Of a stretch of 64,000 nt of DNA, positions 2,429-60,133 are shown piece after piece. The number at the start of each line of letters is the position of its first letter. The stretch's first letter is position 1. The notes beneath the pieces were generated by a model. That model saw nothing but the letters and a program-made list of their open reading frames with translations. It was not told the origin of the DNA and made no database searches. The position numbers and the translations under genes are program-made. The stretch spans positions 1 to 64,000 of the IMG/VR virus record IMGVR_UViG_3300021255_000128; one strand, written 5' to 3'. The DNA comes from a virus (Duplodnaviria; Heunggongvirae; Uroviricota; Caudoviricetes).

Positions 2429-2521
2429 TCGCGTAATGCCCCTAAAAAATGGCGGTATGCCTATGAAAAATGGCGCAATACCCCTGAAAAATCGCGTAAT
2501 GCCTATGAAAAATCACGGTAT
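2429..2521. repeat. iteron array: four ~21-bp direct repeats (AAAAATGGCGGTATGCCTATG-like), followed by an AT-rich tract with TTTATAAAGA x2
   Basis: Direct repeats read from the sequence. They lie next to the 5' end of the minus-strand wHTH gene. Confidence 0.6.
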
Positions 2522-3299: not shown

Positions 3300-3680
3300 G
3301 GTAAAATTGAGTTTGTTGCAAAATTATATTGTCTTTTGTATAGGGTCTTGTTAATCCAGATGTACCAACGTACACAAAATGAAGTGCAGAGCTGTGCGCT
3401 ATCATTAAACTGAGTTCTTTTATATACTGTTATAAAGTTGAAATAGCTTTACTTCGAAGATTTCAACTTTCATTCTCAATGCTAAACCGAGCGCAGAAAA
3501 CTACTACCTGGTATTTGATACTATCGGACTAGAGTAGGACCTCATTGAATCTAATGGAGAGTGGCGATAAGTCCAAGTTGAGTGCCATTGTAACAAACTT
3601 GGTTAGTAAGTAGATGAGAAAATCCTTGATGTTACGTATGAGTCAGGTCATTGAGAATTTTTAATTCCCATTGGAGTGAA
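3300..3680 (+). ncRNA. structured RNA with group-I-intron-like P7 (R-like TCGGACTAGAG, S-like GCGATAAGTCCAAG)
   Basis: GGACT/AGTCC can pair as P7. The region is non-coding and hairpin-rich. Boundaries are approximate. Confidence 0.35.
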
Positions 3681-3900
3681 ATCCTTTGGGAGTTCTAATT
3701 TAAAACAATTTATTATGTGTGCAACAGAAGAAGATATCAAAATGCTCGCTGAACTGAGAGCACAACTCGATCCCTCAAAAGAAATCTCTATTCCCAGGTC
3801 TGTACTTGAAGATGTTTGTGAGTATTGTGAATGTATGGGAATTTATGATGACCTTGGAAATTATGGAGATTTCTATTACAAAATTAAACAGCTCTTGTAA
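3676..3900 (+). CDS. hypothetical small protein
   Basis: 74-aa ORF with a TAA stop. Confidence 0.35.
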   Translation: MKSFGSSNLKQFIMCATEEDIKMLAELRAQLDPSKEISIPRSVLEDVCEYCECMGIYDDLGNYGDFYYKIKQLL

Positions 3901-3911
3901 AACTATTAGGT

Positions 3912-4346
3912 ATGAAATTTATTAAACAACTTTCTGAAGATGAGTTTGTTGTCAAGATGGGACCTGAGGATGGTAATAGAACGCGTAGAATTATTCTTGC
4001 TCATGATTATCTTCAACTCCAAGGCTTGGATTGGTATTGTACTGATTTGAGTAACTTGGATGCTCCTTGGGCATTTGGTAACGTAATTAATGTACAATCC
4101 AATATTCAGATTCCCATACGAATGGCACAAGATATGCTTGAAAAGGTTCTTACTTCAAATCGTAAGTATCTTAAGAAAGAGCATCTAATTTGTGATGGAA
4201 AACCTAATTATCGAGATCCAAATGGATTGTCATACTGTTATATTGACGATAATGGTAAAAAGATGATTGCGTTTTTCAATAGAGAAACATGTGAATATAT
4301 ACACATGGAGCAATCTATATATAATGCAATTAAAAATCCAGAATAA
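3912..4346 (+). CDS. hypothetical protein
   Basis: 144-aa ORF. Confidence 0.45.
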   Translation: MKFIKQLSEDEFVVKMGPEDGNRTRRIILAHDYLQLQGLDWYCTDLSNLDAPWAFGNVINVQSNIQIPIRMAQDMLEKVLTSNRKYLKKEHLICDGKPNYRDPNGLSYCYIDDNGKKMIAFFNRETCEYIHMEQSIYNAIKNPE

Positions 4347-4692: not shown

Positions 4693-5127
4693 ATGATTAA
4701 GTTGACTATTGAAGGTAAAGTTTATAACAAATTTGAATGTATTCTTAATAATAGTTATAGAGCAACTGACCTCTTGAGAATGTTATCCTCAATTCCCACA
4801 AACGAAACTTATTCAGTGAAAACTATCAAAATCGAAACTGATGTTGATCTTGTAGGAAAAGAGTATGATGTTTGTGACAATAGTTATTGTATCAATCTTG
4901 CCAATGGAAAGAGTGCTCAATTAATACAGAAAGTTGGACATTATTATAGTCCCGATGAAAATGAAAAGGGTGCAAGGTTTTTCATTGTCAAAGAACCTTA
5001 TATTGCAAAGGTAGATGTACCTTTAATTGGTGGTTTTTATATTATTTTTGTTAATGTGGTATCCACAAAAACAGGAAATATTTATAGAGTTATCTATAGT
5101 GAAGGTTGTGTTTATCATGAAAATTGA
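4693..5127 (+). CDS. hypothetical protein
   Basis: 144-aa ORF ending in TGA. It may read through 8 codons to TAA if TGA is decoded. Confidence 0.45.
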   Translation: MIKLTIEGKVYNKFECILNNSYRATDLLRMLSSIPTNETYSVKTIKIETDVDLVGKEYDVCDNSYCINLANGKSAQLIQKVGHYYSPDENEKGARFFIVKEPYIAKVDVPLIGGFYIIFVNVVSTKTGNIYRVIYSEGCVYHEN

Positions 5128-8478: not shown

Positions 8479-8779
8479 CGACCACGAACCGCACTATCCG
8501 TTGGAGATCGGGAAAGTACGTTTAGGTGACTCCTAAACCTCTGTAAAATTGTCTCGTCAACAGGCCGTTAATAAAGCATGTAAACATGTCGTATACCAGA
8601 AGCGTTAGGAAGGAAAGATATAAGACTGATAGCACTCGCTTATATTGGATTAAAAGAAGTTGTAGTCTGATAATAAATAAACAGCAAATTTCATCTGCAG
8701 TGAAATGGGATTTTTAGCTCTGTCCCGGAGCATATATAGAGGTGTATCCCCTCTGTCTTATACACAGTAGAAAGGGTAA

Positions 8780-9208
8780 TTGGTCGCATGTGGGATCATT
8801 CCCCACCACCTCTACAAAAACATTAAAATTCTTATTATGTGTTTAACTATTGATTTAAAGAAACATCCAGATCTTAAGCCAATCAAATTGGATAAAGATT
8901 TGATAGTTCGTAAATATCTTTGTAATAAAAACGACGTACCTGGTTATTACAGAAAACGTTTCATGACAAAATATGTAACTCCTTTTATGTATGTACGGGT
9001 ACACTTTTTATTCGGAAAAGCTATTCTTAGAGCGAAATTAGGCGAAGTGGATTCTGAAATTTATGAAGGAATTCATTCTACGACGGTTTATATCTATTCG
9101 GATCATCTTATTGAACATAAAGCTATTATTCCTAAAGGTTCTTTAGTATACTATGGAACGAATGGAGATATAGTTTCAAATAAGTTAATAATTTTTAAAA
9201 ATAAGTAA
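8780..9208 (+). CDS. small protein, paralogue family A
   Basis: See 5148..5510. Confidence 0.5.
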   Translation: MVACGIIPHHLYKNIKILIMCLTIDLKKHPDLKPIKLDKDLIVRKYLCNKNDVPGYYRKRFMTKYVTPFMYVRVHFLFGKAILRAKLGEVDSEIYEGIHSTTVYIYSDHLIEHKAIIPKGSLVYYGTNGDIVSNKLIIFKNK

Positions 9209-9720
9209 AATAATCTTAGATTTGAAACATTAATAACTATGAGTAAGACTCACAAAAGTCCAACCATTTGAAGGGTTGCTTATTTATGTGATAATATCTT
9301 AATAAATGTCGTAGATGAAAGTAGTTTGTGCATAGTTTCAAATCTAAGATTTTAAAATAAATATAAAAAAGTATTCCGGGATTGGCGAAATAGGTAAACG
9401 CAACAGACTTTGTGGAAATAAAAGAGCTATGAGGTGATGAGCACCTAAAACGAAAGTTTTAGTGTGAATGCTGGCTAACTCGGTGAAGGTATCAGCCTTA
9501 TAAATGATAATAACGCCGAACTAAATTGAATACAAATATTCATAAATGCGTAGAGACTATACACCAGCCACCTAAGTTCATTTGAATATGGTGAAGACAT
9601 AGTCCACAAGCTGTATTGGCTCACAGCTTCGAAAATCTGTCGAATCTTAAAAGATTCTTTCGAGTTCGATTCTCGAATCCCGGACGAATTCATACCAAAA
9701 ATTATTTGGAATATTCAAAA
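9209..9720 (+). ncRNA. group-I-intron-like ribozyme core 1
   Basis: P4-like CTAACTCGGTGAAGG; R-like GCGTAGAGACTATACA; P3' CCAGCC pairing with upstream GCTGG; P8 hairpin CACC..GGTG; S-like AAGACATAGTCC (P7 GACTA/TAGTC). A 17-bp inverted repeat lies at 9213-9229 / 9334-9350. Confidence 0.5.
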
Positions 9721-9839
9721 TTTTTAACTATCTTTGTGTATTAAAAATAAGTTTAATTTGAAAATGATTTGGTATGAAACAATGAAAAAATTTAGAAGAA
9801 TTAAAACAATGAGTTAGTGAATGCGATACAATCGCAGAA

Positions 9840-10781
9840 TTGTGTAGAAAATTAGAATTACAACCAAAAGGGGGTAATTATAATACTGTAAAAGCAATTA
9901 TTGAAGAAAACGGATTAGATATTTCTCATTTTAAAGGAAAGCATTCAGTTGTAAGAAAAAAGGGCATTTCTAGAATTAATTTATCTGATGTTTTAGAGGG
10001 AAACGTTGTATATGGTAATTCTAACGCACTTAAGGAAAGATTAATTAAAACAGAAGTAAAAGAAAGAAAGTGTGAGTGCTGTGGAAATACAATGTGATTA
10101 GGTCTACCAATTCCATTAGAACTCCATCATAAAAATGGAGATCATTATGATAATCACTTACAAAATTTAGAGTTACTTTGTCCTAACTGTCATGCACTTA
10201 CAGATTCATATCGTGGTAGAAAAATAGATAAAGAACTAGAAGATATAACAGAAGATGTTCAAGAATCCATAAATAAGTTAAAGGAAAAAGAACGTATTAG
10301 AGCTGAAGAAGTTTATAAGAATCATCTAAAAAATGGTGATATTGCAAAACCAAAAGCTACAATGAAAATCAAAAAACCTAAGTATTGTGAATATTGTGGT
10401 AAAGAAATTATCGGTAGAGGATCTAAATATTGCTCACACGAATGTGCATCAAATGCTGCTAAACAAAATATTGTATATGACGCAGATACATTATTAGAAC
10501 AAAGTAAAACTGTACAATCATTAATAGCATTAGCTAAATTATACAATATTACAGATAATGCTCTTAAAAAACATCTTGTTCGATTAAATATTTATGATGA
10601 AATTCGTGCAAATTTTAAATCTAAAACGAAAACTGTTTTGCAATTTGATTCTGATAACAATTTTATAAAAGAATGGGTCTCTGCAAAAGAAGCAGCAGAA
10701 GAGTTAAATCTTCAAAAAAGTAAAATTTTAGCTACGTGCAGAGGTGAACAAAAATCATCTGGTGGATTTGTTTGAAAATAT
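9840..10781 (+). CDS. HNH homing endonuclease with in-frame TGA read as Trp
   Basis: ORFs 9840..10097 and 10362..10775 share a frame and are separated only by TGA. No other stop lies between them. Contains HHKNG...LLCPNCH (HNH), C-terminal CxxC and DNA-binding-like modules. Confidence 0.75.
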
Positions 10782-10789
10782 AAAGAATA

Positions 10790-11450
10790 ATATAATATAA
10801 ACCATTAAGAAAACTAGTAAACAAGACGGTAGCTGTAATCAAGCTTATAGTTCAAATAACAAGAGAACAAAATGTTGCTAGAATTTGAAAGTGCACAACT
10901 TAATGGTTATTTGACTTCGTAGCATAATGGATAATGCAACAGACTTCTTAAAAGGAGTGCTATAGTTGAAAGATTATAGTAGAACCTCCCTAATTCGGTG
11001 AAAGCTAAGTGAATGATGAAAGCAAGATTGTACAGCCAACTCCCAGAAATGGGGAACTATGAAGCAGTTCTTAATGTGTGTACACTCATTTATATGCCAA
11101 TACCGAGCCAATGTTATTAGCAAGGATGACATCTCGAAAGAGTTCAGAAAATAAAAGTCGGAGCTATAGACAGTGTGTAGAGACTATACAGGAGGAATCT
11201 AAGTTGAAATTATTTTATTGTAATTGCAGCCGCCTATTCAATTAGGATAAAACGGAAACGAAGAACAATAAAGTATCTTGCAAGATTTCAATATGGTTAA
11301 GATAGAGTCCAGACCACAAACAGGTATGTAGATATAGGGCTAAACTCCTTATTTGCAACTGGTAGTGAAAACTATAGTGGTAAGCTAATCTGTAGATTGC
11401 GCGTTCGAGTCGCGCCGAAGTCACTAATAACAACTAATAACAATTAATAA
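10790..11450 (+). ncRNA. group-I-intron-like ribozyme core 2 (homologous to core 1)
   Basis: CCTCC-CTAATTCGGTGAAAG (P3/P4), R-like GTGTAGAGACTATACA, P3' GGAGG, S-like TTAAGATAGAGTCC. Shares the 14-nt R segment GTAGAGACTATACA exactly with core 1. Confidence 0.5.
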
Positions 11451-12855: not shown

Positions 12856-13209
12856 ATGATAAGATACATTCCCGCAAAAAAACTGATTGAATATATAAAA
12901 AGCCGAAGAGATGGCGCACTCGAGAGACAAAAAAATCTTGAAAGGATAGGGCAGGAGACTGTCCTAAATGAAATGATTGCAGCAGAACTTAATAGGCTCA
13001 TTTCTTTCATCGACTCTCTCCAGCAGGAGCAGCCGGAGGTGGACTTGGAAAAATTCACCGAAAAGATAAAGACTTTCCAAGGAAGATATAAGCATCCCGA
13101 AATCGTATCAATAAAAGGCGCTATGTCGTTTATGGCAAGGATGTTCTATCAGTATCCTAATGTGGCAAGGCGGTGGTACGAGCAACTACCAAAAGTAACA
13201 ATGGACTAA
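12856..13209 (+). CDS. small protein, paralogue family B
   Basis: SFIDSLQQE motif. Confidence 0.45.
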   Translation: MIRYIPAKKLIEYIKSRRDGALERQKNLERIGQETVLNEMIAAELNRLISFIDSLQQEQPEVDLEKFTEKIKTFQGRYKHPEIVSIKGAMSFMARMFYQYPNVARRWYEQLPKVTMD

Positions 13210-15480: not shown

Positions 15481-15672
15481 ATGGAAGATAAAGAATTTTC
15501 TTTTGATACTAATATTATTTTAGCATCTTTTATTATCCTATTAGTTGCAAAACTTGTAGGATGGATTAGTTGGTCTTGGTGGTGGATATTTGCTCCATTT
15601 TGGCTTCTAGCTTTAATTTCTATTATTATTGTAGTTGTTCACAAATTCATCTTTTTTATTAAAAATAAATGA
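15481..15672 (+). CDS. small Trp-rich membrane protein
   Basis: WISWSWWWIF motif. Its TGA stop overlaps the ATG of the next paralogue (ATGA). Confidence 0.45.
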   Translation: MEDKEFSFDTNIILASFIILLVAKLVGWISWSWWWIFAPFWLLALISIIIVVVHKFIFFIKNK

Positions 15673-15833
15673 ATTTTGGTTTATGTGATATATTAGTTTT
15701 AATATTTATAATATTAAGATTATGTAATATTATTGACTGGGCATGGTATTGGATAATATCTCCATATTGGATATATTATTTTTTAGTATTACTGTCTGGT
15801 GCAATTAAAGCTATCTTTGACTGGTTTAAATAA
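15669..15833 (+). CDS. small Trp-rich membrane protein (paralogue of 15481)
   Basis: WAWYWIISPYW motif. Below the track cutoff. Confidence 0.4.
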   Translation: MNFGLCDILVLIFIILRLCNIIDWAWYWIISPYWIYYFLVLLSGAIKAIFDWFK

Positions 15834-16260: not shown

Positions 16261-16375
16261 TGGGCAGTCGTCTAATGGTTAGGACACGTAAGTTTAGTAA
16301 TGATTCATTACTTACAATCTCGTTAACTGTTATCCTGTGGAGATCGTGATTTAGGTTCGAATCCTAGCTGCCCGA
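16261..16375 (+). ncRNA. tRNA-like gene with oversized central region (~115 nt)
   Basis: Good acceptor (TGGGCAG/CTGCCCG), D arm (GTCT-AATGGTTA-GGAC) and T arm (TTAGG-TTCGAAT-CCTAG). Between them lie two 5-bp stems, each enclosing 18 nt (GTAAG..CTTAC and ATCTC..GAGAT), instead of a 7-nt anticodon loop. Confidence 0.4.
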
Positions 16376-22338: not shown

Positions 22339-22809
22339 ATGCCAAACGCTTATTATAAATTAAAAACTAAAGAAGAACTTCAAGATTTGCTTGACAAATG
22401 TAATACACTTGCAGAATTTATGCGGGAATTAGGTTATTCTGGAAATAGAGGAAATTCAATTAATGGTTTAAAATTGTACTTAGACAAATTGGGTTTGGAT
22501 TATTCAAAATACTCTGTTCATAGTATTTATGCACATGAACATCCCAAATGAAAACTTGAAGACCTATTAACAGAAAACTGTTCTTATTCAAATCATACTA
22601 GATTAAAGGAACGACTTATTAAAGCAAATCTTTTGGAAACAAAATGTGCGATTTGTGGTATTAGTGAGTGATTAGGACAACCATTAGTTTTACAATTAGA
22701 TCATATTAATGGTAATAATAGAGATAATCGAATAGAAAATTTAAGATTACTTTGTCCTAATTGTCATTCTCAGACTGAAACATTTTGTCATAAAAATAGA
22801 AATATTTAA
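22339..22809 (+). CDS. HNH homing endonuclease with in-frame TGA codons
   Basis: Track ORF 22339..22551 ends in TGA and the frame continues to TAA at 22807. CAICGISE(W)LGQP...LDHINGNNRDNRIENLRLLCPNCH. N-terminal domain resembles that of the 9840 gene. Confidence 0.7.
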
Positions 22810-23487: not shown

Positions 23488-23889
23488 ATGACTAATAAGC
23501 AACTAGGAAGAATTGGATTAAGTATGGCCATAAACTATTTTACAATTGCCGGTTATACTGTTTCTTTACCAATTAATGATACGCAATGATATGATTTAAT
23601 TATAGAAAAAGATGGAGTTATCGAAACAGTTCAATGTAAATGTACAGATACTGATGAGGGAAGTATTGATTTAAGAAGTAAAGGAGGAACAAATGGAGGT
23701 GTTTATGACAATGTTATAGAACATGAACAATTAAATTGATTATTTTGTGTTGATAAAAATAGAAAATGCTTTTTAATTCCGGTTAAAGATTTAATTGGTA
23801 ATAATGTCCACCATTCCATTCGTTTAAGATATGAAAAAACTGTAAACGGACAGGGTTTTCAAACATTTCCTTATTTATTAAATATTTAA
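23488..23889 (+). CDS. putative PD-(D/E)XK-type endonuclease with two in-frame TGA codons
   Basis: WYDLIIEKDG...ETVQCK reads as a D-E-K motif. Sits between tRNA-like elements. Trp fits at both TGA positions. Confidence 0.45.
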
Positions 23890-24315: not shown

Positions 24316-25431
24316 ATGAAACAACCTACAAGAACTTTACCACAAACTGTAAAGTTATTTCCTAAATCTTGGTCAGAAGTTCTTCATGACAATATTCCTG
24401 ATAATTTTTATAATTTATCTTGGGAACAAAAATATAAAAATTGTAAATCATATAATAGTACATATTATTGTTCCAATAAAGATGGTAGAATTTTCTTTGG
24501 ATTGCGAACAAAAACAATATGTAGAGCTGGAACCAAATTTTATCCAAAAATTGATTGGGCCGATACCATTGTAATAGATGGAAGGAAAATATCGATTCAC
24601 AAATTAACTTTTGCTGGAATATCTAAGTTTGTATCTATTATTGGAATAAATTTAGAATTTGCTCACAATCTTCCTGTAAATTTAAGAAGGTACTTATTCA
24701 AAGAATGTGTTATTGCAGACATTCTTCGTAAAAAAGTCTATAATGAAGAAACTTTATGTAAATGTGTTCTTTCCAAAATATATCATTTAAAGGGATTTGA
24801 TTGGAAACTATTTTTCCATTATAACAACTGTATAAATTATTTATCAATTCCTGATCTTCAAGCGTTTACAAAAGATTTAGCAAAAAGTATAAGTGTTCTA
24901 GTTCATGAAGGGGAATATTATAATCCAGCTTACAGAGATTTATTGGATTGTGCTGTTCAATTAAATGAAATTGTAGATTTTACTTGGTCTCAAAAGAGAA
25001 TTAAAGAAGAACATCAACGGCAAATCAACGAGTTAAATCGTAAAGAAATTGAAGCAAAAGAACAAGTTCCTGTATTTGATGTATGTTTAGATGAACCACA
25101 TATTCATATGTTAAATACGGAAAAAGAAGTATTTCTTGAAGGAACTAATATGCACCATTGTCTATATAAGTGTTATTGGAATCGAATCAAATCTAAAGAT
25201 TATATAGCTTTCCATATGTCTGTTCCGCAAGATTGTACATTTAGTTTTAAAGTACTTAATAATAAAGTTGTATTAGATCAAGCATTTCTTGCCTACGATA
25301 GACAAATTTCAGACATAACTAAAGCAGCAATTGTAGATTTCCAGAACAGAAATGAAGCAGATTTATACAAATTACTTACTGGAGAATACAAAGCTTGTTG
25401 GCCACCTGAAGAAATAGATTTACCTTACTGA
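24316..25431 (+). CDS. hypothetical protein
   Basis: 371-aa ORF. Ends in TGA, with TAA nine codons further on overlapping the next start. Confidence 0.5.
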   Translation: MKQPTRTLPQTVKLFPKSWSEVLHDNIPDNFYNLSWEQKYKNCKSYNSTYYCSNKDGRIFFGLRTKTICRAGTKFYPKIDWADTIVIDGRKISIHKLTFAGISKFVSIIGINLEFAHNLPVNLRRYLFKECVIADILRKKVYNEETLCKCVLSKIYHLKGFDWKLFFHYNNCINYLSIPDLQAFTKDLAKSISVLVHEGEYYNPAYRDLLDCAVQLNEIVDFTWSQKRIKEEHQRQINELNRKEIEAKEQVPVFDVCLDEPHIHMLNTEKEVFLEGTNMHHCLYKCYWNRIKSKDYIAFHMSVPQDCTFSFKVLNNKVVLDQAFLAYDRQISDITKAAIVDFQNRNEADLYKLLTGEYKACWPPEEIDLPY

Positions 25432-25937: not shown

Positions 25938-26008
25938 TATAAATTCGTCTAGTGGTTGGACACAATTTTTGGGTAATTGCAACATAGGTTCGATTCCTAT
26001 ATTTATTA
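25938..26008 (+). tRNA. second tRNA-like with anticodon TGG; weak all-AT acceptor stem
   Basis: D GTC-TAGTGGTTG-GAC, anticodon stem CAATT/AATTG with loop TTTGGGT, T ATAGG-TTCGATT-CCTAT. Mismatch at acceptor pair 1-72. Confidence 0.35.
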
Positions 26009-26552: not shown

Positions 26553-27263
26553 ATGGCAAAATTAGACAAAATTGATTCAAACTTAATTAAAGAAATTATT
26601 AAAAGAAGTAAAAGTTGAGAAAACGTTTGTACTAACTTAGGATTATGTAATAATTCATACAATAATAAGTGACTAAAATCATTTGTAGAAAGAGAAAATT
26701 TAAATGTGTCTCATTTTATAAAAAGATTAACAAAACGTCAATATGAATTAAATCCTAAAGTGTGTAAGAATTGTGGTAAAATAATACCGTGAGAGCATAG
26801 AGAAAATGAATATTGTTCTAGTAGTTGCGCGGCACAAATTACAAACTTAGGTCAACGAAGAGTTCATTCTAATAGATTTTGTAAAAATTGTGGTAAAGAA
26901 TTACTTTCGTCACAAAAGAAATATTGTTCAATGGATTGTCAGCAAGAGTTTGAACAGAAAGAATATATTCAACGATGAAAAGATGGATTAGAAACTGGAT
27001 TATCTGGTAAGTACGGAATAAGTGAAAGACTTAGAAGATATTTCTTTGATAAATATAATTGTAAATGTCAAAACTGTGGATGAGGAGAAGAAAACCCCAT
27101 AACACATAAAATACCATTACAGTTACATCATATTGATGGAGATTGTACAAACAATAGAGAGGAAAATCTTAAATTACTTTGCCCCAATTGTCATGCATTA
27201 ACTGAAAATTTTGGTAGCTTAAATAAAAACGCTACTCGTATTGATAATAGAAAAAGGTATTAA
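26553..27263 (+). CDS. HNH homing endonuclease with 5 in-frame TGA codons
   Basis: Continuous frame if TGA is sense. Repeated CxxC zinc-finger pairs and C-terminal LQLHHIDGDCTNNREENLKLLCPNCH. Confidence 0.7.
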
Positions 27264-28625: not shown

Positions 28626-29345
28626 ATGGAACTAAAATATTTGAATTACGATACTACGTATTCTGTAAATGTAAACGGACGCCAATACAATTTTAACCAC
28701 GAAGCGTGTTTTAGTGATGTATTCAAAAGAATAACTATTACATGTAATGATTTGTGTGTTTATACAATTTGGATAAACCGTTCAGAAGAATATGTAAGAA
28801 GTAGTAACCATGATAATTATTGTTTTCTTACTCCAGAAGAACTTCGTAATCATATTAAAATAGTAAAAAGGCTTTTTGATTTTAAGTATTCTATTAAAGC
28901 TTTTGAAGATCATTATGAAGTAACGATAACAATACAAGGTCCAAAAATACGACATAAATATCTACTTACTTGGATTAGATATACGTACGAATGTCCAATG
29001 AATGTAATGTTTGTTGATATAAATCTACTTAAAAAGGAAAAATTATTTAAGTTTACATCTAAGGCAAACTTATTCTTATTACTTTCTTATGCAAGTGGAA
29101 GTTGGCACCATTATAGAGACATTCATTGTATACCAGAAGGTAATTCTGGTAGATTTTTAACCAATGACGAATTGGCAAATCGTCTTTTCAAGAAGATTTG
29201 TTTAAATGACATTTATACTGGTTCATATAATTTTAGATTTAATGTTCCTGCAGTCTATGACACGGATATAAACAAAATTATTAATACTTATCCAGAACGT
29301 CGTAGTATTTACATAGATAAATATTTAAAATATATAAAGAAATGA
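28626..29345 (+). CDS. hypothetical protein
   Basis: Start refined to the ATG at 28626. TGA stop overlaps the next start (ATGA). Confidence 0.5.
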   Translation: MELKYLNYDTTYSVNVNGRQYNFNHEACFSDVFKRITITCNDLCVYTIWINRSEEYVRSSNHDNYCFLTPEELRNHIKIVKRLFDFKYSIKAFEDHYEVTITIQGPKIRHKYLLTWIRYTYECPMNVMFVDINLLKKEKLFKFTSKANLFLLLSYASGSWHHYRDIHCIPEGNSGRFLTNDELANRLFKKICLNDIYTGSYNFRFNVPAVYDTDINKIINTYPERRSIYIDKYLKYIKK

Positions 29346-29956
29346 AAGTTTATGTAGTTGGTCCTGCAACACACTATACAAACTTTATGTCGAATGTAGA
29401 ATTAACAGACGATATAAAAAAGGCAAAAGTAATTCTTTTTACAGGTGGAGAAGATGTAGATCCATCTATCTACGGTAAAAGAAAACATCCAGAAACGCAT
29501 AGTAATCTTAAACGAGATCTTAAAGAAAAAGAAATCTTTGAAAAGATTCGTCCTGATCAACTAGCTGTGGGAGTCTGCCGTGGATCTCAGCTTCTCTGTG
29601 CTTTAAATGGTGGAAATCTTGTTCAGGATTGTAGTGGACACGCACTATATACAACACACCCTATCTATAGTTTTGAAGGAGACATGGTCTATGAAATAAC
29701 GTCTACACATCATCAGATGCAATATCCTTTTGATTTACCTAATAATGAATATCAAATTTTGTATTATGGTGTAGATGGAAGAGATTTTCGAGGTGATGGT
29801 ATTGACAGTAGATATTTAAATGGATGTAATCCCGAAATTGTTTTATACAAAAGACCTGGATTACCTAAATGTCTTGCAATTCAAGGACATCCTGAAATGA
29901 TTCCAAATAGTCCTGTTGCAAAAATGTTAGATAAATTAATCAAATCATTATGTTAA
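29342..29956 (+). CDS. class-I glutamine amidotransferase-like / peptidase C26 (gamma-glutamyl hydrolase-like)
   Basis: Nucleophile elbow GVCRGSQLL and C-terminal QGHPE (His-Glu) motif typical of GATase1/C26. Confidence 0.65.
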   Translation: MKVYVVGPATHYTNFMSNVELTDDIKKAKVILFTGGEDVDPSIYGKRKHPETHSNLKRDLKEKEIFEKIRPDQLAVGVCRGSQLLCALNGGNLVQDCSGHALYTTHPIYSFEGDMVYEITSTHHQMQYPFDLPNNEYQILYYGVDGRDFRGDGIDSRYLNGCNPEIVLYKRPGLPKCLAIQGHPEMIPNSPVAKMLDKLIKSLC

Positions 29957-38318: not shown

Positions 38319-38759
38319 TCTCCTAACAATATAAGGCACTTACAATACAAAATTGCTATTGATTCGATCAATTACTTAATATTTAACAACTCTATGCTGG
38401 TCATAGCGTGCGACACGCGTTAGTTTCCGTATCTAAAATACGTTATTTAAGTGGCTTGTAAGTGAAAAGTAACTTTCAGTGCCTTTTTAGATTTATTTTA
38501 ACAATATTTTTAAATCAAATGCCTAAGGTATCTGATTATGAACTTGAACATTTATCTGATAATGAATCTAATTTTCAGAAAGTTCGTAGTAAAAAACCTA
38601 AATCTTTAAAAGAACCAAAATACCCGGATAAAAAGAAAAATCGGGAAAAGAAAATTGACTTTTGAGATTTAGAAGAAAAAGAGTTTTAAAAGTTAATGAT
38701 ACATACAAATAAAAATCATTTATATTGCATTAATATTACTTGATTTGTATCATAAATAT

Positions 38760-45104: not shown

Positions 45105-45497
45105 ATGATTAAAATTGAAGAGAGATATATACCTATTTACCATCAATTAGTTTATTTTATATTAGGTGATCCGTATGAGGTTCAAGATTATCTTACAGAT
45201 GTGTATAGGGATAATTTTGAATTTAATCCTCAAACAGCCAATGCTGTAGTATTACATAATCATTTAACCAGTTGAATTTGATTTGATCATAAGAATATTA
45301 CAGTTCCTATAATAGCTCATGAATTAGATCATGCTGTATTTGATTTAATGATAGATCTTGGCTTAGAGTTAACAGATCAAGAAGCATTTTGCTATTTAGA
45401 TGAATGATTAATGGAACAATGTGTAGATATATTTGTTATACAGATGGCTCCTATCAATCTAGTAGAGGATCAGGAGGATGAGCAAGCATCATCTTAG
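45105..45497 (+). CDS. putative zinc metallopeptidase (HExxH) with 3 in-frame TGA codons
   Basis: IIAHELDHAVFDL. ORF is continuous only with TGA as sense. Ends at TAG. Confidence 0.45.
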
Positions 45498-45871
45498 ATG
45501 AAAATGAACAAGTTATAACAAAATTATATCAGGGTAAAACCCATACAACAAATAATCGTATGGAATTAACAGCTGTTCTTGAAACATTAAAATATTTTAA
45601 AGAGCCAACTGATATAACAATTGTTTCAGATTCACAATATGTAATCGGAGGAATTAATGGTTCTGCTAAAAAATGAATCGAAGATTCTGATTTAACTAAA
45701 AAGAATTTAGATCTTTGGTTTCAAGTTGTTGAATTACTTGAAAAACACAAAGTTACAACAATTTGAACCAAAGGTCATATTGGAAACAAATGAAACGAAG
45801 AAGCGGATCGTTTGTGTGTGTTTGCAGCACAATGTTATAATTTAGAGAGAGATGTATGAACTATCGAATAA
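45419..45871 (+). CDS. rnh: ribonuclease H (RNase HI-like), 4-5 in-frame TGA codons
   Basis: MCRYICYTDGS...GSGG(W)ASII, TAVLETL, SDSQYV, DLWF, TTI(W)TKGH, NEEADRL. TGA falls where E. coli RNase HI has aromatic or Trp residues. Confidence 0.8.
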
Positions 45872-47151: not shown

Positions 47152-48003
47152 ATGAGTGATTTACAAGAAAAGTTGACACAGGCATTTGACGATCGAGATA
47201 AAGATATCAATCGTTGAACTTGAAAAATGTCTAATGGTACGGAAATAAAAATGGTTGACATGACATACGATCAACTTCAAAGAGCATATTGACATGTAAT
47301 TGATATGCTTTATAATAAAGATCCGTATCATCCTGGTGTACAACGTAAAAGAGATCAAGTAAGACGAATGTGGGATTGTGCTAATACAGAATTACTACTT
47401 CGTTATATTCTGCATGAATGTAGAGTTGATATTCTTAAAACAAATAAAGATTTACTTGATTTTATAAGTGCTCATAAAAGAGAGCATGGACTGAAAAATT
47501 CAGATACTGTTGATAAGATTTTTACTGGATTACCTGATGTATTTAGTTCTGTTACAATAGATATGTTGTTATCAGCTTGTCTAGATTCTTTAGATGCTTT
47601 TAATAGAAGATTGATTTCTGATAAATTTATTTTATCTTTAGGAATTTGACTTACTGAAGATGAAAAGAAAGATTTGACAGAATATGATAGTAATGGTAGA
47701 TATCGTAGTAAAAAGGATGTTATTAAGGAAAGATTGTTTTTGAATAATAATGTCGAATTACGATTTAATCCTCAAGGTTTGTCTTATAATGAATTTAGAT
47801 CAATTGTTCGATTAGAAGGAAGACCTAAATTCTCAAACATTCCTACTAATACTATAACTTTACTTCGAGATAAACTATTGTTACTATTGGATCATGATTT
47901 GGAATATCATATTAATCGTTGAAGTGTGCTAAAGGAAAAGATTGAAGCTGTCGCAATGCAGAACAATTTTATTCTAAAGCCTAGAGATGATAATCAAAGG
48001 TAA
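47152..48003 (+). CDS. hypothetical protein with 6 in-frame TGA codons
   Basis: Track ORFs 47305..47649 and 47674..47922 and the upstream ATG at 47152 share one frame, interrupted only by TGA. Confidence 0.5.
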
Positions 48004-49891
48004 AACGGCATTTGTTTATGATATTGAAGTATTTCCTAATTTCTTTAGTGTTGCAATAAAAAATACTGAATCTGGTAACATTCGTACATTTCAAATTTCA
48101 GAATGACAAAATGATATTGGAACAATAATACAATTATTTTTAAATCAAAATATATATTGAGTTGGATATAACTCAATTCATTATGATGCTCCAATTATAT
48201 CATATATTATTCTCAATTATCAAAAATTATCATCACAACCAGTTTGATTAACAAATCAGGAATTAAAACGATTCAGTGATTTAATCATTGAATCAAAAAC
48301 ATCTGCTTCATGAAAGAAATATAAATACGCTAATTTATTTGCAAATCTTGATTTATTAACAATGATGTTTGCAGAAAAATTACGAGTTTCATTAAAAGCA
48401 CTACAAGTAACAATGGAATATCGTAATGTTGAAGAGTATGATGGTAATTTTAATGATTTTCTTCCAAAGTCAGATGTAGAAAAATTAATTAATTATAATA
48501 TTAATGATATTTTATCAACTGAAGAACTTTTAAATAGGTTAAAAGGAGAAATTGATCTTCGTTTGGGAATAGAATCAAGTCTTGGTGTAAACGTATTAAA
48601 CCAGGATGGTGTTAATCTTGGTGTAGAAGTTATTAAAAACAGTTATTTGAAAGATACTGGAAAATCTTGATATGAAATTAAGGATTTAAGAAGTCCGTGT
48701 CATGAAGTAGATTTAAAAGATATCTATTTCGATTTTATAAATTTTAAAACACCATTATTTCAAGAGTTTTATAAAGAACTTTATAATACTCATATCAATC
48801 TCGACACAGAAAAACTTAAAAAGACAGCAGAACGATGAAAGAAAACGCTTAGAGTAAATGATCTTGAAATAACATATTCTTTAGGAGGTATTCATACTAA
48901 AAATAAACCAGAAATCTATAAAACAGATGATAAATGAATTGTTGTAGATTCGGATTGTGCCTCGATGTATCCAAGTGCTATTATAAATTTTGGATTGTAT
49001 CCTCAACATCTCGGACCAGAGTTTTTAAGAACCTATAAGAAGATTCGTGAGGACAGAATTAAAGCTAAACACAATGGCGACAAAATCATGAATCAAACTT
49101 ATAAATTAGCACTTAATGGTATTTCTGGAATGCTACAAAATGAGTATAGTTGATGCTATGATCCAAAAACAGTTATAAGACTCCGATTGAATTGTCAAGC
49201 AATGTTATTAATGCTTACAGAACGTTTAATAATGCTTGGATGTCGTATTGGACAACTTAATACAGATGGTGCATTATATTTAGCTCCTAGAGACAAATTT
49301 AATGATGTAATGCAAACCTGTAAAGAGTGAGAGGAAGAAACACAATTTCAGTTAGAGCATGAATACTTTGAAGTATTTTATCAATATGCTGTAAATGATT
49401 ATATAGGCGTGTATAAAGGTTATTCTGAATCACATGATCCCAAGTTAATAAAGACAAAAGGATTATTTATTCGTGAACCAATTCTTGGCAAAGGAATGGC
49501 GCCTCAAATTATTGCGGAAGCATTAGTACAGTATTTTGTAAATAATGTTCCAGTAAATGATACGTTATATAACTGTAATGACATTAAGAAGTTTTTAACG
49601 TTTCAAAAAGTAAGTCGAGATTTTAGTGTTGAATATAATGGTCAACTTTTAACGCACATTAACCGATATTATATGTCCATTAATGGACATAAAATTCGTA
49701 AATGTAAAATCGATGAAAACGGTAAACGATATGATTATGAGGATATGTGTGCAACTTCTGGAGTTACCTTGTTTAATGTATTAGAAGATATATCTCCAAA
49801 AGACGCTAAAATTAATTATAGTTGATACCGTAATGAAATATATAAAATAATTTATGCTATTGAGGATAGCTTAAATCCAAAATTATTCTAA
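47987..49891 (+). CDS. polB: family-B DNA polymerase with 3'-5' exonuclease domain; all 10 Trp codons are TGA
   Basis: Exo motif FVYDIEVFPN, exo II-like YNSIHYDAPI, Pol motif A DSDCASMYPSAI, motif C-like QLNTDGALY. Continuous 634-codon frame only when TGA is sense. Confidence 0.8.
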
Positions 49892-50814: not shown

Positions 50815-52033
50815 ATGGATAGAACAGAACGACAAAAACTCTGTTTAAAACGATGATTAAACTCTGGAGGCAAAGCAAGTATTGAGGCTTGCACAGGGTT
50901 TCGGAAAAACTAGAGTAGCTTTAAATCTTATAGATGCATTTACTGCTAAAAATCCAGAAGCTCAGACATTAGTAGTTGTTCCTACTCAAATCCTCAAAGA
51001 TCAATGAATACAACAAATCGATGAAAGAGGATTAGGATTAAATGCTAGAGTTGAGATAATTAATTCAGTTATTAAATTGGATTGGATTTGTGATCTTCTT
51101 GTAGTAGATGAGGTTCATGTTTGTGGAAGTGATACTTTTCAAAGAGTGTTTCAATGTGTAAATTATAAGTTTATTCTTTGTTTAACTGGAACAATGGAAC
51201 GATTGGATATGAGACATCTTCTCATTGAAAAATTTGCTCCAATTTGTGATAGAGTTACAATTGAAGAAGCGGAACAAAATGGATGAGTGTCTCCACATAA
51301 AGAATACCTTGTACTATTAAATGTAGATCTTACTGAATATAATGAATGGACTCGTAAATTTAATAATTATTTTTCTTATATGAATTATGATTTTTCATTA
51401 GGTATGAAGTTAGCAACAGATCCAATTTTTAGAAATTCATGAGCTAAAACAATGGGATTGGATTCTAAAAAGACAGCTGCTATTGCAATGGATTGGATGA
51501 GAATGATGAAAAATCGAAAGAATTTTATTCAAAATCATCCTAAAAAGTTAGAAGTTGCAAAGAAAATAATTGAAGCAAGAAAGGATAAAAAGATAATGAC
51601 CTTTTCTGCTACAATTAAACAAGCAGAGTCTTTTGGATTTGGATATGTAGTTCATTCTGATAAAAAATCAAAAGAAAATAAGGAAACACTTGAAGCGTTT
51701 AACAATGCTGAATCTGGAGTTTTACACTCCTCAAAAGCATGTAATACTGGATTGGATTTAAAAGGAATTAACTGTGAAATCATTATGAACACAGATTCTT
51801 CCAAAATCAAAAAAGTACAAACTGTTGGAAGAAGTTTAAGATTTGAGCAAGGTAAAACCGCTGAAATTTTTACACTTGTTTTGGCAGGTACACAAGAAGT
51901 AAAATGATTTACGAATAGTAAAGCATCTAAAGTAATAACAATTAATGAAGATCAGTTAGATAAAATACTAGCTGGTGAAAATATTGAAACTCGGGAAAGA
52001 AATTATTCCGAAAATTTAACATTTAGATTTTAA
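50815..52033 (+). CDS. SF2 (DEAD/DEVH-box) helicase; needs a +1 frame change near 50897-50903 plus 4 TGA as Trp
   Basis: Frame 1 MDRTERQ...IEACTGF, then frame 2 FGKTRVAL... together give motif I ACTGFGKT across the GGGTTTC homopolymer junction. DEVH box VVDEVH. Motif VI TVGRSLR. Confidence 0.6.
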
Positions 52034-52127
52034 CAGTTTCAGCCTAAAGGTATTTAAAGTACTATGGAACGTTAAATTAATCACTTAATTTAACAATAAT
52101 TTGGAACTAGACACAATTTTAAATCTA

Positions 52128-52697
52128 ATGATATCATATAGACTCACTGCTGACGAACTCCTATTGGTTTATTTAACGTTTCTAGCCCAAGAGGAGGAAG
52201 GACATCCTGAGTTTTTAGCAAAGTGATTTTCTAATGGTGGCGGGTCTAAACTAAAAGGATTATTTGAATCCTTGAAAGAAAAAGGTATTATTCATAAAGA
52301 TTATAATCCGGAATCATATAATCCAGACGATATAGAATTTAATAAAAATTTTCTAAAAGGATGAGTTAAGAATTCTGGAGAACTTGGAAAGGAATTATTT
52401 GAAGCATACCCTCCTTTTCTAACAATACAAGGAAGAACTTATCCACTTAAAAACATCGCAAAGAAATTTAATTCTTTAGATGATTTTTTCTTCCATTATA
52501 GTAGCCAAATAAAACACAATCCGGAAAAACATAAGGAAATTATGGAAATATTAGATTGAGCAAAAGCAAATAATAAAATTACTAGTGGTATTTTAGAATT
52601 TGTTTGTAGTAATGGATGGGATAGCTTAAAATATCTTAAAGAGCATCCACAAGAGGGTCAAGTGGAAAGTACATTTAATGTATATGAAAGTATTTAA
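52128..52697 (+). CDS. hypothetical replication-module protein with 3 in-frame TGA codons
   Basis: 189-aa frame continuous with TGA as sense. Confidence 0.45.
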
Positions 52698-53830
52698 TGA
52701 CAGATCTTGATCTTCTTTGAACTCTCATAGATAAAGGTAAAAAGGGTGATAACGTAGGTATTTCTTCGGGATTATCTAAATTAGATAAATTAATAGGAGG
52801 TATTCAGCCGCACCGATATTATTTATGTGGTGCAGCTTCATCTGTAGGTAAAACAGCCTTTATTCTCTTTATTATGTATAACATTTTAAAGAATGAAGAT
52901 AAAAAACGTCCTGTATATTTTCAATATTATAGTTTGGAAATTGGAGCAGATGTTTTACTTGCAAAATTGATGGGATTGTATTGTGCAGAAGAATTTGGAA
53001 TTTATTTAACAATAAATGATATTTTATCTTTTGAACATCCGATTTCAGATGAATATTATGAATACCTAAAACAAGCTAAAAAATGACTTTCAACCGTTAC
53101 AGAATATATAGATATTGTTGATACGAATGTTAGCGCTGATGTTTTATATGCTCGCACTTGTAAATTTGCAGAAACAATTGGCCATTTCGAAGTAATTGAT
53201 GGTAAAAAAGTTTTTATAGCAGATAATCCAAATGCTATAATTATTGGAGTCATTGATCATTTTGCATTAATGAATGTACAAGCTGGAAGAACACTAAAAC
53301 AAGAAATTGATTTAGCATCTTCTTATATGGTAACTTTAAAACGAAAATTACCGTTATCTTGATTTGCATTAATGCAACAAAATAGAGCTTCATCTGATAT
53401 CGAACGTCGTAAATTAGATTTGAGCGAACCAGGTCTTAATGATTTAAAAGATAGTGGTTCACCAAGTCAGGATTCAGACGTTGTGATGCAATTATTTTAT
53501 CCATTTAGAGAGAAGCTAGCTACGTATCGCGGTTATCGAATTCTTGGTGAAAACGGAATTGGACAAAACCATAGATCCTTAATTTTAAGTAAAAATCGTT
53601 ATGGTATTGCTAATCAGGTAATAAATCTTGGTTTTTATGGTTCTGTAGGATGGTGAATTCAACTTCCACCTCCAGAAAAAATTACGGATTATACACAATT
53701 TCATTCTGAAAATGGAAACATACCTTTAAAAAATAAAAAAGAAACATTAATAGAAGATGATTCTACTCCACAACGAGTAGATGAGAAAAAGCCTATAAAA
53801 TTTAATTTTAATGGCTATCGAATTACCTAA
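52697..53830 (+). CDS. DnaB-like replicative helicase (RecA-fold C-terminal domain), 5 in-frame TGA codons
   Basis: Walker A GAASSVGKT, IGVIDHFALM and QQNRASSDIERR...DLKDSGSPSQDSDVVMQLFYPF typical of DnaB/gp4-type helicases. Confidence 0.7.
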
Positions 53831-57144: not shown

Positions 57145-58149
57145 ATGAAATTTTCATTAGAGCCAATCACGATAACAAAGGAATTAATTTTAAATAGAAT
57201 TCCTGAAGAACAGATTATGGAACACTATTTAGGCGTAAAAATTCAAAAAGGTCTATTTAGAAGTCCCCTTAGAAAAGATCAGAAACCAACTGCGAGTTTC
57301 TATAGAGATCGACGTGGTAGGTTAATAATGAAAGATTTTTCTGGAGCATTTAGTGGCGACTGTTTTGCAGTTGTCATGGAACGATTCCAGTGTAGTTATT
57401 ATATGGCTCTTCAAATAATAGCAAATGATTTCGGAATAATTCGACGTAACGATTTAACTAAACATAAACCAAAAATCGAATATTCCGGAATCAAATTTGA
57501 AGAGAAAGAATCTGCTAAAATTCAAATAAAAACTCGTGATTTTACAGAAGATGAATTAAATTGATGGTTAAAATACGGAATCACTAAACAAACTCTTGAA
57601 AAATTTAGAGTTTATCCTGTAGATGCTGTATGATTAAACGATCAATTATTTTATCAAAATTTAGATAAAAAACCTGTATTTGGATATTATGGAGGAATAA
57701 AGAATGGACTCGAACAATGAAGAATTTATTTTCCAGGCAATACAAGATACAAGTTTATATCTAATTGAAAACAAGAACAAATTCAAGGAGCGCATATGCT
57801 TTCTAAAGAAGGTGGTGATTACATTATAATTACAAAGTCTTTAAAAGATGTTATGGCTTTATATGAATTTGGAGTACCTGCAATAGCACCATGTTCTGAA
57901 AATTTATTTGTTACTAAAGCTCAATATGAACAATTAAAAAAGCATTATAAACATATATATGTTTATTATGATAACGATTTACCTGGTGTTCAAGCCATGC
58001 GAAAAATACATAAACAGTTTCCAGAAGTAACCTGTATAATGTTACATAGAGAAGATGCAAAGGATTTTTCTGATTATAGAAAAGCCTTTGGTTATAAAAA
58101 GACTTTGGAATTGGTTAATAAAGCAAAAGAATACTATGGCGAAACGTAA
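57145..58149 (+). CDS. DnaG-like primase (zinc-binding-like N-terminus plus TOPRIM-like core), 4 in-frame TGA codons
   Basis: FRSPLRKDQKPTASFY...GDCFAVV resembles the primase zinc-binding region. ITKSLKDVMALYEFG..AIAP.SE is TOPRIM-like. Track ORFs 57145..57564 and 57796..58149 are in-frame. Confidence 0.5.
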
Positions 58150-58462
58150 AAAAGAAATCGAACTTCCAACTGAAGAAGATATTGAAAAAAAGCCAAAAAG
58201 AAGAGGAATTGGAGCGAGAAATAAGGCTAGAGGTAACGAATATGAATGTAGAATTGCAAAAGAACTTCGAGAATTAGGATTTACAGGAGTTGTTACATCA
58301 CGTAGTGAATCTAAAAGAACAGATGATAATAAAGTTGATTTAATTGATACAGAGCATCGTTTGCCTTTTAATATTCAACTTAAACGTACTCAAACTACCC
58401 CTCAATATTTTAAAATTCGAGAAGAATCTACAGTTGATCCAGAATCATTTGTTTTAATTTGA
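58136..58462 (+). CDS. small basic protein, possible nuclease; ends in TGA
   Basis: MAKRKKEIEL...RGNEYECRIAKELRELGF...DLIDTEH. Confidence 0.35.
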   Translation: MAKRKKEIELPTEEDIEKKPKRRGIGARNKARGNEYECRIAKELRELGFTGVVTSRSESKRTDDNKVDLIDTEHRLPFNIQLKRTQTTPQYFKIREESTVDPESFVLI

Positions 58463-58602
58463 AATAAACAGGAGAAAGCAAACGTGAACTTTTTATCGGT
58501 AGGTGAAGTAGTCATGCTTGATAAAAAGACATTTTATAAACTAATTAAACCTTATGCAAAATCCGAGAGCGAATAACTTTCGGATTTTTAGTATATTATC
58601 GT

Positions 58603-58797
58603 ATGAAACAATTTAAGATTGCAGTTAGCACACCTGATAGAGCAATCATTATTCCAATGGAGTATGATGATCAACAGGATGTTGTAGAAATTAAAGAATT
58701 ACAGGTAGAACCTGTTCCTGATAAAGACGAGGACCTTTCTAAGGACCCCGCATTTTTTATTGTACAAAAAATATTAAAAGCGTTTTATAATGACTAA
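58603..58797 (+). CDS. hypothetical small protein
   Basis: 64-aa ORF. Confidence 0.35.
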   Translation: MKQFKIAVSTPDRAIIIPMEYDDQQDVVEIKELQVEPVPDKDEDLSKDPAFFIVQKILKAFYND

Positions 58798-60133
58798 ATT
58801 ATATCCTTTCTTAAGTGGAACATTACGTCAGATTATTTCAGAACTTGTTCAGAAACAAAATCCTATTGCAAAAGAAATATTAAGAATTGATACGGATGTT
58901 GAGGATACATTAAGAGTTTATAATTATATACCAGCAAATCTACGTGAGAAAATCATTGAAAAAGTTATTAATCCATCTTTAACTGGAGAGGTGTCAATGA
59001 TTTCTATAAGAGTTGGAGGTGAAGATCCGAATGTGTCATTTCTTCCTAAAGATAAAGAGCCAGAATATACTCCCGATGGAACTTGGGCTAGAAGAAATAG
59101 ACAAGAAGGAAAACCAGCTCGAATATTTCAGAAGGCTATAGTAAAGGAATTTAAACAACAAGAATGGGAAATATTTTCCAATCTTTTTAAAGCAGAAGTT
59201 TGTAATTGTAATAATTTTGAATTAGTATCTGGAGAAGACATTCGTAAATGGTATTTTGAAGCAAATTATTATGATTGTAAGGGAACTCTTGGAAATAGTT
59301 GTATGCGTTATGAAAGTGCGCAAGACTATTTTGATGTCTATGTAGATAAGGCGAAAATGCTTATCACAAAGAAAGCTGGTAAATTAACCGGTCGTGCAAT
59401 TGTATGGGAAATTGATGAAAATACAACAATTCTTGATAGAGTTTATACGTGTTTTGATTATTTGTATAATTGTTTCATCGATTATGCTAAAGAAAACAAA
59501 TGGATTATCAGAGAAGATAATTCTCTTTTACATACTGGGGATGAACAATATTGGTTAGTTCCTGAAGACAATTATACTACTTCGAGACATCTTTCCTTTA
59601 AAATAAAACTAGACAAGGATTATGAATTCTTCCCTTATGTAGATTCGTTTAGATACTATAACCAAACTGGAAATTATCTAACAACAGAGCTTTCTGAATG
59701 CGCATTGGATAGTACCGATGGTGATTATTGCAGATGTTCTGTTCAATGTGATCATTGTGGAAGAACATTCTTTGGTTACGATGACGATGATTTACCTGAC
59801 GAACTTCATTGGTCTGAATGGTCTGATGAATATTTATGTGATGATTGTTGTTTTTGGTCTGATAGATTAGAACAGTATATCCCAAATTCAGTAGAACACG
59901 TCTTTGTACACACAGGATCTATAGCGGGAGACAATGTACCTCTATGTGAGATAGAATCTGATATTGTTAGTAATCCTGAAGAAGCAGAAAACATTGAAGA
60001 TCCTATTGTAATCATAGACGAAAAGTACTATTATTTAAACGAATGTAAAAATATAATTGCATTCAGTTTTGATAAAAATTGTTATGTTTTAGTATCATCT
60101 CCTCAAGGTACAAACAGACCAGCTGATATTTGA
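58790..60133 (+). CDS. hypothetical Cys-rich protein
   Basis: 447-aa ORF. C-terminal Cys clusters (CRCSVQCDHCGRTF..., CDDCCFW). Confidence 0.5.
   Translation: MTKLYPFLSGTLRQIISELVQKQNPIAKEILRIDTDVEDTLRVYNYIPANLREKIIEKVINPSLTGEVSMISIRVGGEDPNVSFLPKDKEPEYTPDGTWARRNRQEGKPARIFQKAIVKEFKQQEWEIFSNLFKAEVCNCNNFELVSGEDIRKWYFEANYYDCKGTLGNSCMRYESAQDYFDVYVDKAKMLITKKAGKLTGRAIVWEIDENTTILDRVYTCFDYLYNCFIDYAKENKWIIREDNSLLHTGDEQYWLVPEDNYTTSRHLSFKIKLDKDYEFFPYVDSFRYYNQTGNYLTTELSECALDSTDGDYCRCSVQCDHCGRTFFGYDDDDLPDELHWSEWSDEYLCDDCCFWSDRLEQYIPNSVEHVFVHTGSIAGDNVPLCEIESDIVSNPEEAENIEDPIVIIDEKYYYLNECKNIIAFSFDKNCYVLVSSPQGTNRPADI

Follow-up and report, generated by a model that had tools for sequence, protein, structure and literature searches.

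The plus-strand gene at 15481..15672 ends in a TGA whose first two letters also belong to the ATG of the following gene, and it raises the question of whether TGA can still end genes in a phage that elsewhere places the same triplet at tryptophan positions. The window analyzed here, i.e., the whole 64,000-nucleotide stretch at positions 1 to 64,000 of IMG/VR record IMGVR_UViG_3300021255_000128, was tiled into 81 plus-strand genes using a coding-potential model together with maps of open reading frames (ORFs). The genes fall into two classes: in one, TGA encodes Trp, and in the other, TGA is found at natural C-termini.

Gene ends at TGA and the ATGA overlaps

The initial annotation had singled out the ATGA tetramers at 15669-15672 and 29342-29345 as stop/start overlaps; both are present, and the ORF structure agrees with that assignment. 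The tetramer by itself is uninformative, because it occurs 557 times on the plus strand of the window, and the weight of the argument is therefore carried by the ORFs. The upstream partner in the first overlap, 15481..15672, encodes a small protein of 63 amino acids with two transmembrane (TM) segments, has six TGG codons and no internal TGA, and terminates with TGA at 15670-15672. Its stop codon is shared with the ATG of 15669..15833 (plus strand, 54 amino acids, five TGG), a paralogous small TM gene, and the region 15481-15833 is a tandem of paralogous small membrane proteins with a common DW[SA]W[WY]W motif. The orthologue of the upstream gene in the related locus L006 has a TAA stop at approximately the same point, past its DWSWWW motif, and the tail that would be added here by readthrough, ILVYVIY, is unconserved, the close relative L003 having ILV followed by a stop. 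The second copy is missing from L003, where the junction reads GTGA with no ORF after it; for the window, a genuine start of the downstream paralogue within ATGA is plausible.

At the second overlap, a gene without assigned function (28626..29345, plus strand, 239 amino acids, three TGG, no internal TGA, stop TGA at 29343-29345) is followed by a Peptidase_C26/GATase-like gene on the same strand (29342..29956) whose start codon is the ATG within ATGA. This start is supported by the N-terminus of the encoded protein, MKVYVVG, which is conserved as MKV[YF]VVG in relatives, and by the retention of the ATGA junction in L003 (89% amino-acid identity), L004 (64%) and L001 (52%), where the L001 version is the tandem stop TGATAA. 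Gene order is different in L005, in which the orthologue of 28626..29345 stops at a TAA about 8 residues later, and the Peptidase_C26 gene also begins with MKV[YF]VVG but has an intergenic start of its own. The downstream gene opens a TGA-free cluster at 29342-33232, comprising Peptidase_C26, COOH-NH2 ligase, GATase_6/7 and Amidoligase_2 genes, that is retained in every relative examined and resembles a system for peptide or amide-bond modification. A scan of IMG/VR with the 28626..29345 protein found no relative, and one with the PcfJ-like protein described below found one locus.

Two further plus-strand genes, 24316..25431 and 4693..5127, were correctly listed by the initial annotation as ending in TGA, and a fifth such gene, 58790..60133, is added here. 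The first of these encodes a PcfJ-like protein of 371 amino acids, with seven TGG codons, no internal TGA and a TGA stop at 25429-25431. The family C-terminus, ...[DE]LP[YFW], is found in about 20 homologues, and the stop codon that follows it is TGA in the window and in L003, TAA in L001, L004 and L005, and TAG in L006; four-taxon parsimony suggests that TGA stops may still arise in this family. A tail of the form WTLEIN[HY]D is found on PcfJ-like proteins only in code-4 gene calls (P0122; compare P0121), and is a spurious product of those database calls. The predicted C-terminus of the window protein is ...EEIDLPY if TGA stops and ...EEIDLPYWTLEINHD if it is read through; for 28626..29345, the corresponding predictions are ...YLKYIKK and ...KKWKFM. 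The gene at 4693..5127 (144 amino acids, stop TGA at 5125-5127) terminates 10 residues past the conserved core TGNIYRV[LI]Y, or 20 if read through, and its homologues terminate 6-15 residues past the same core. The gene at 58790..60133 (plus strand, 447 amino acids, nine TGG, no internal TGA, stop TGA at 60131-60133) sits within the replication cluster, and its L002 orthologue likewise lacks internal TGA, contains 10 TGG and stops at a TGA within a non-homologous, variable tail.

For the PcfJ-like gene, 28626..29345, 15481..15672 and 4693..5127, the C-termini of orthologues thus coincide with the TGA, which agrees with the earlier proposal that TGA also acts as a stop; conserved ends at the downstream TAA or TAG were looked for in these four genes and found in none. 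The comparison supports a role of TGA as a natural, family-conserved gene end in the non-recoded class. The small plus-strand gene at 38519..38689 probably provides a counter-example. It has one TGA (38663), seven codons ahead of TAA, and L002 and the distant L006 both retain this TGA and an acidic tail ending in F, apart from an in-frame length change, as would fit a sense codon; 38519..38665 was for this reason dropped as a candidate sixth TGA-ended gene. The near-terminal TGAs at 10773, in an HNH gene, and at 45857, in an RNase H gene, were likewise read as sense, given the further internal TGAs in each of these genes.

Counted against random expectation, as the initial annotation had proposed, the terminal codons of the 81 genes are 66 TAA, 10 TAG and 5 TGA, and TGA stops prove to be depleted about five-fold (5 of 81; p = 1.6e-8) relative to the 32.5% TGA and 19.5% TAG expected from triplet frequencies; TAG stops show no depletion relative to the same expectation. 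For the four TGG-rich genes whose TGA comes late, uniform placement would put all four TGAs so near the end with a probability of ~2e-6. The initial annotation had further noted that TAA or TAG follows within 4-10 codons. The distances from TGA to the next in-frame TAA or TAG are right for the four genes that it named (3, 7, 7 and 9 codons; 21 for 58790..60133), but this proximity goes barely beyond chance (p ~0.05): a back-up stop lies within 9 codons in four of the five TGA-ended genes and within 8-10 codons at 33-38% of control positions. At both ATGA junctions (15669 and 29342), moreover, the back-up stop falls within the following gene, whose coding sequence fixes it. Enrichment of back-up stops was dropped as evidence, being marginal.

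Two gene classes and the opal suppressor tRNA

The TGA-free class comprises 64 of the 81 genes, with 11,447 codons, 166 TGG and no internal TGA, and its stops are 49 TAA, 10 TAG and the five TGA. The remaining 17 genes, with 4,305 codons, hold 59 in-frame TGA and 12 TGG, and every one of them stops at TAA. With TGA counted as Trp, Trp frequency is 1.45% in the TGA-free class and 1.65% in the recoded class, in which TGA accounts for ~83% of Trp codons. The heterogeneity of TGA and TGG use per gene (G = 208) exceeds the maximum of 126 obtained when Trp codons were shuffled among genes; among the 68 genes that contain Trp, 46 use TGG only, 10 use TGA only and 12 are mixed. Genes for GroEL, an IMPDH-like dehydrogenase, the amidoligase/GATase cluster, a peptidase, AAA_24, an exonuclease and a MazZ-like protein all belong to the TGA-free class. 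From 45 to 64 kb, the class keeps changing from gene to gene along one strand, as exemplified by the TGA-free peptidase gene directly 3' of the family-B DNA polymerase (PolB) gene, and the same genes are recoded in the relatives compared, L002, L007 and L008.

Profile searches found no structural or lysis genes in the window, and the recoded set, all on the plus strand, consists here of the replisome and homing endonucleases. The PolB gene (47987..49891) has 10 in-frame TGA and no TGG. Within 50882..53830 lie genes for a ResIII/DEAD helicase (four TGA, three TGG), for a 189-residue protein without profile match (52128-52697; three TGA, one TGG) and for a DnaB-like helicase (four TGA, one TGG), and within 57145..58576 are those for a Toprim primase (four TGA, one TGG) and a RusA-like resolvase, whose single TGA, codon 109, falls within the profile match. 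The RNase H gene (45404..45871) has five TGA and one TGG, the last TGA, four codons ahead of TAA, being taken as sense. The seven endonuclease-type genes include, assigned by profile, one for an HNH/NUMOD-type homing endonuclease (9774..10790; four TGA, one TGG), three further HNH-type genes with TGA at 22339-22809, 26553-27263 and 40700-41563 and a PDDEXK_5-like gene with TGA at 23488-23889. A further TGA-containing gene at 54926-56047 is putatively LAGLIDADG-like, a likeness seen by eye only, and one at 63060-63584 is GIY-YIG-like, with a GIY-YIG gene at the corresponding place in L008. The presence or absence of endonuclease-type genes differs between relatives. Two more recoded ORFs, 46835-47146 and 47227-48003, contain TGA and have no profile match, and the small gene at 38519-38689, with its single TGA, completes the set of 17.

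The meaning of the internal TGAs can be read most directly from PolB. Homologues of this protein number in the thousands, and the alignment of the TGA columns took in 22 of them; five columns have Trp in 20-22 of these, and three more have Trp alongside Phe or Tyr. Since code-4 gene calling also underlies many of the aligned proteins, the DNA of relatives was checked directly. The L007 polymerase gene, whose product is 51% identical to that of the window, has no TGA and eight TGG, which makes the comparison non-circular, and the 10 TGA sites of the window correspond in it to TGG at six and to TTT or TAT at four. L002 and L008 have TGG at site 448, and the PolB genes of the more distant loci L011 and L012 contain 11 TGG and no TGA. 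Together with the conserved tRNA(UCA) described below, these matches to TGG and aromatic codons bear out the earlier statement that TGA is used as Trp elsewhere in the phage. Reading of UGA as selenocysteine was rejected, since the tRNA is ordinary (7-bp acceptor stem, short variable loop) and the TGA sites align with Trp, Phe and Tyr. Among the relatives, the L007 gene (10001-11887, eight TGG and no TGA) differs from that of L008 (10001-11911), which has one TGG and seven TGA.

A tRNA with anticodon UCA, i.e., an opal suppressor, is encoded at 41581-41657 on the plus strand. ARAGORN labels it 'SeC', but it has an ordinary cloverleaf with encoded CCA, and in Rfam it is a regular tRNA with a score of 50.7 bits; it is the one tRNA with this anticodon among 19 that ARAGORN finds in the window. 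Relatives keep a tRNA(UCA) gene at this locus, flanked in L002, L005/L007, L006 and L008 by the IMPDH-like gene and GroEL, and L009 likewise has a tRNA(UCA), upstream of PolB. Across four phages, compensatory changes are observed in 16 of 21 pairs, and the loop CUUCAAA is invariant. Judging from the residues aligned with TGA, this tRNA would be charged with Trp. The fetched loci of L001 and L004 stop short of the IMPDH-GroEL site, those of L005 and L006 yielded the tRNA, and the fetched flanks of the distant loci L011 and L012 contain no tRNA(UCA).

Several features were observed beside this gene and among the other tRNAs. Directly downstream of the suppressor tRNA, 42309-43895 encodes a phage GroEL-type chaperonin (PHROG E = 7e-138) and is TGA-free; in relatives, an AAA ATPase gene lies upstream of the GroEL-type gene. 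The Rfam scan of the window returned tRNAs, and no intron or other RNA above threshold. One of these tRNAs, at 16261-16375 (33.9 bits), is missed by ARAGORN, and its anticodon arm is extended by ~43 bases, possibly an intron. L002, whose PolB is 91% identical to that of the window, has a tRNA(UCA) at the same position but as a different molecule (4097-4189) of 93 nt, with a 22-nt extra arm that resembles a second anticodon stem-loop; a remnant of a tRNA 3' half lies directly upstream (~3960-4020). L005 encodes, in addition to its tRNA(UCA), an amber suppressor tRNA(CUA) at 13087-13158 beside tRNA-Tyr, and no in-frame TAG was found among the called genes of that locus. ARAGORN also reports tRNAs with the four-base anticodon ttgg in L003 (11623-11695) and L006 (6564-6638), the window counterpart of which (25938-26008) is called as tRNA-Pro(tgg).

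Two meanings of one codon

We consider it probable that the window derives from a partly recoded phage of a standard-code host, with a phage tRNA(UCA) and with the meanings of UGA split mainly by gene and, we infer, by time. In such a host, to which both the avoidance of TGA and the TGA stops point, RF2 would terminate at UGA, and a switch in time would follow when, later in infection, the phage tRNA(UCA) reads UGA as Trp. Genes required without the suppressor would be expected to use TGG for Trp and to lack internal TGA, as is the case for 64 of 81, and five of them would have kept a TGA stop, two in ATGA. Genes made only once the suppressor is abundant would have drifted under AT pressure to the observed ~83% TGA for Trp, and this drifted set would comprise the core of the replisome together with the selfish homing endonucleases. 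Under efficient suppression, the five TGA-ended proteins would gain 3-21 residues up to the next TAA or TAG, tails that the phage presumably tolerates. A simple switch from an early block to a late block of genes fits poorly, since the classes are interleaved gene by gene. Two observations speak against the partly recoded phage as drawn here: a PolB gene with 10 TGA needs very efficient suppression, which leaves TGA hardly usable as a stop, and the recoded set is the replisome, whereas the emphasis in the literature is on structural and lysis genes.

Part of the gene-wise pattern may be due to module exchange. L007 and L008 are 72-86% identical in neighboring genes and 54%, 41% and 56% identical in PolB, DnaB and the exonuclease, respectively; from this mosaic, we infer that the code state of a gene can arrive with an exchanged module.

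The demand of PolB for efficient suppression also speaks for an alternative that we hold to be unlikely, according to which the suppressor is active throughout with constant leakiness and the five TGA ends are leftovers of the standard code that are mostly read through, so that the short tails would always be present on the proteins and dual use would exist in an evolutionary sense only. The five-fold depletion of TGA stops next to undepleted TAG stops, the shortness of the tails (3-21 codons) and the tandem TGATAA at the conserved junction in L001 agree with such relics as well. If TGA were always well decoded, however, it would be hard to understand why 64 genes with 166 Trp codons have no internal TGA at 32% GC, and in the PcfJ-like family it is the more distant relatives that have TAA or TAG after the conserved C-terminus, TGA being confined to the pair of the window and L003. 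The same avoidance weighs against a host that reads TGA uniformly as Trp under code 4, in which TGA would never be a stop and genes would end at the downstream TAA or TAG. Public code-4 gene calls do yield plausible ORFs for every gene, and the near-terminal TGA at 38663 looks like sense; but 46 of the 68 Trp-containing genes use TGG only, whereas TGA makes up 80-90% of Trp codons in real code-4 genomes (bioRxiv 10.1101/2022.06.29.495998), the family C-termini match the TGA positions with unconserved tails behind them, and the phage brings its own tRNA(UCA). We give this reading almost no credence.

Two other accounts keep both meanings in play and place the decision elsewhere. With RF2 and tRNA(UCA) acting simultaneously on the same mRNAs, local sequence or position could select between them, and for this the juxtaposition of co-oriented neighbors might be cited, the primase and RusA-like genes with sense TGA lying beside 58790..60133 with its stop TGA. 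No distinguishing context is visible around TGA: the following base is T, A, A, A and G at the terminal codons and A (18), T (16), G (13) or C (7) at internal ones, a comparison to which five stops give no power. To our knowledge, context-dependent stop/sense codons have no bacterial precedent, and we judge this explanation very unlikely. Alternatively, the suppressor could gate the replisome rather than lysis, such that PolB, the helicases, the primase and RNase H would remain untranslated until tRNA(UCA) accumulates. Recoding would then flip in an all-or-none manner between relatives, as seen for PolB with 10 TGA and no TGG in the window and no TGA and eight TGG in L007. Since sense and stop TGAs stand in adjacent, co-oriented genes, such gating needs some feature that discriminates between them during the translation of both, and it appears doubtful to us, if less so than a rule of local context.

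Phage affiliation and comparison with known systems

Among named phages, the PolB of the window is closest to Crassvirales, with 42-44% identity to Suoliviridae and other crAss-like phages, and contigs of relatives measure 143-177 kb, several bearing names suggestive of rumen studies. The source is a candidate large crAss-like phage of the ~165 kb class; since the window does not reach the hallmark genes (TerL, MCP, portal and RNAP), membership in the family is a lead. Crass-like replication genes, the size of the relatives and the tRNA block, with 19 tRNAs in the window, match traits of the Zeta-like group. Shine-Dalgarno motifs precede 4 of 76 start sites, a scarcity that fits a Bacteroidota host; assignment of a host from metagenome-assembled genome bins holding relatives was dropped, the bins being inconsistent (Phocaeicola, Bacillota, Sphaerochaeta). 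INPHARED phages yielded no megablast match to 42309-50814. Within the window, 60168-60926 encodes a protein with a MazZ-like dATP/dGTP diphosphohydrolase domain, and L006 has an adenylosuccinate-synthetase-like gene at 8738-9781 that is possibly PurZ-like; the two genes hint at a putative 2-aminoadenine (Z-base) DNA pathway in the phage family. On the minus strand, which holds few genes, 1630-2350 encodes a replication-initiator/DnaD-like protein with an in-frame TGA near its N-terminus, and in positions 1-3900, where GC content (37%) is higher than elsewhere, coding is ill-defined.

The window is well supported as a new example of the known pattern of the partly recoded phage, and no new mechanism is called for; the general model has been published for opal- and amber-recoded phages (bioRxiv 10.1101/2021.08.26.457843; PMC7886860; bioRxiv 10.1101/2022.06.29.495998; PMC12386605). 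What the example adds is a reassigned codon that still works as a gene end within a recoded phage, backed by comparative genomics, and a recoded set that can consist of the replisome and selfish endonucleases, beyond late genes. For annotation, it means that code 11 and code 4 both fail on this genome, cutting PolB and the helicases short or adding spurious tails, and that block-based tools would overlook the gene-by-gene alternation.

Alternatively coded (TGA to Trp) phages of standard-code hosts were reportedly described by Ivanova in 2014. Borges et al. describe the alternatively coded gut and rumen phages of the Agate, Jade and Sapphire clades, and TGA-to-Trp phages with suppressor tRNAs in which 26-71% of genes are recoded, replication genes 'variably' so, a homing endonuclease prefers TGA, and TGA stops are depleted (bioRxiv 10.1101/2021.08.26.457843). 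The window resembles these phages in its in-frame TGA at Trp positions, its own tRNA(UCA), the recoding of part of the genes, TGA-rich homing endonucleases, low GC content, depleted TGA stops, large genome size and a probable link to cattle rumen-type samples. It differs in that the replisome core and homing endonucleases are recoded and interleaved with TGA-free genes, whereas Borges et al. stress structural and lysis genes. Neither an RF1 nor a TrpRS gene was seen within the window.

Zeta crAss-like phages, with genomes of 145-192 kb, have tRNA blocks, opal and amber suppression with a suppressible stop soon followed by another, polB or polA, many mobile endonucleases and a TCA suppressor (Yutin 2021, PMC7886860; PMC12386605), and dual-coded genes yield nearly identical proteins under both codes (Pfennig, Lomsadze and Borodovsky, Mgcod, bioRxiv 10.1101/2022.06.29.495998). 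The window shares with both the near-identity of proteins under either code and suppressible stops with a nearby second stop; unlike the dual-coded blocks of Mgcod, modeled at a length of at least 15 kb, its classes switch gene by gene. With code 4 of Mycoplasma and Spiroplasma and with code 25, it has in common the decoding of TGA by tRNA(UCA) and, in recoded genes, a TGA share of ~83% among Trp codons. Phages using code 25 have in-frame TGA in ~90% of their genes (Borges et al., bioRxiv 10.1101/2021.08.26.457843), whereas, unlike in such host-phage systems, most genes of the window avoid TGA wholly and five end with it.

Outside the phages, and set apart from the gene-class split seen here, are the ciliate Condylostoma and the trypanosomatid Blastocrithidia. 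In these organisms, one codon is both sense and stop, and the choice between the two depends on where it stands with respect to the mRNA 3' end; no such positional or context rule is seen in the window, where the split follows gene class. The ATGA junctions, finally, resemble the classical arrangement for translational coupling in the four-base overlap of a TGA stop with a downstream ATG, conserved at 29342, and by analogy the two genes there may be coupled. Unlike the genomes in which such coupling is classically found, that of the window also decodes TGA as Trp, and its overlap junctions comprise two ATGA as compared with five TAATG.
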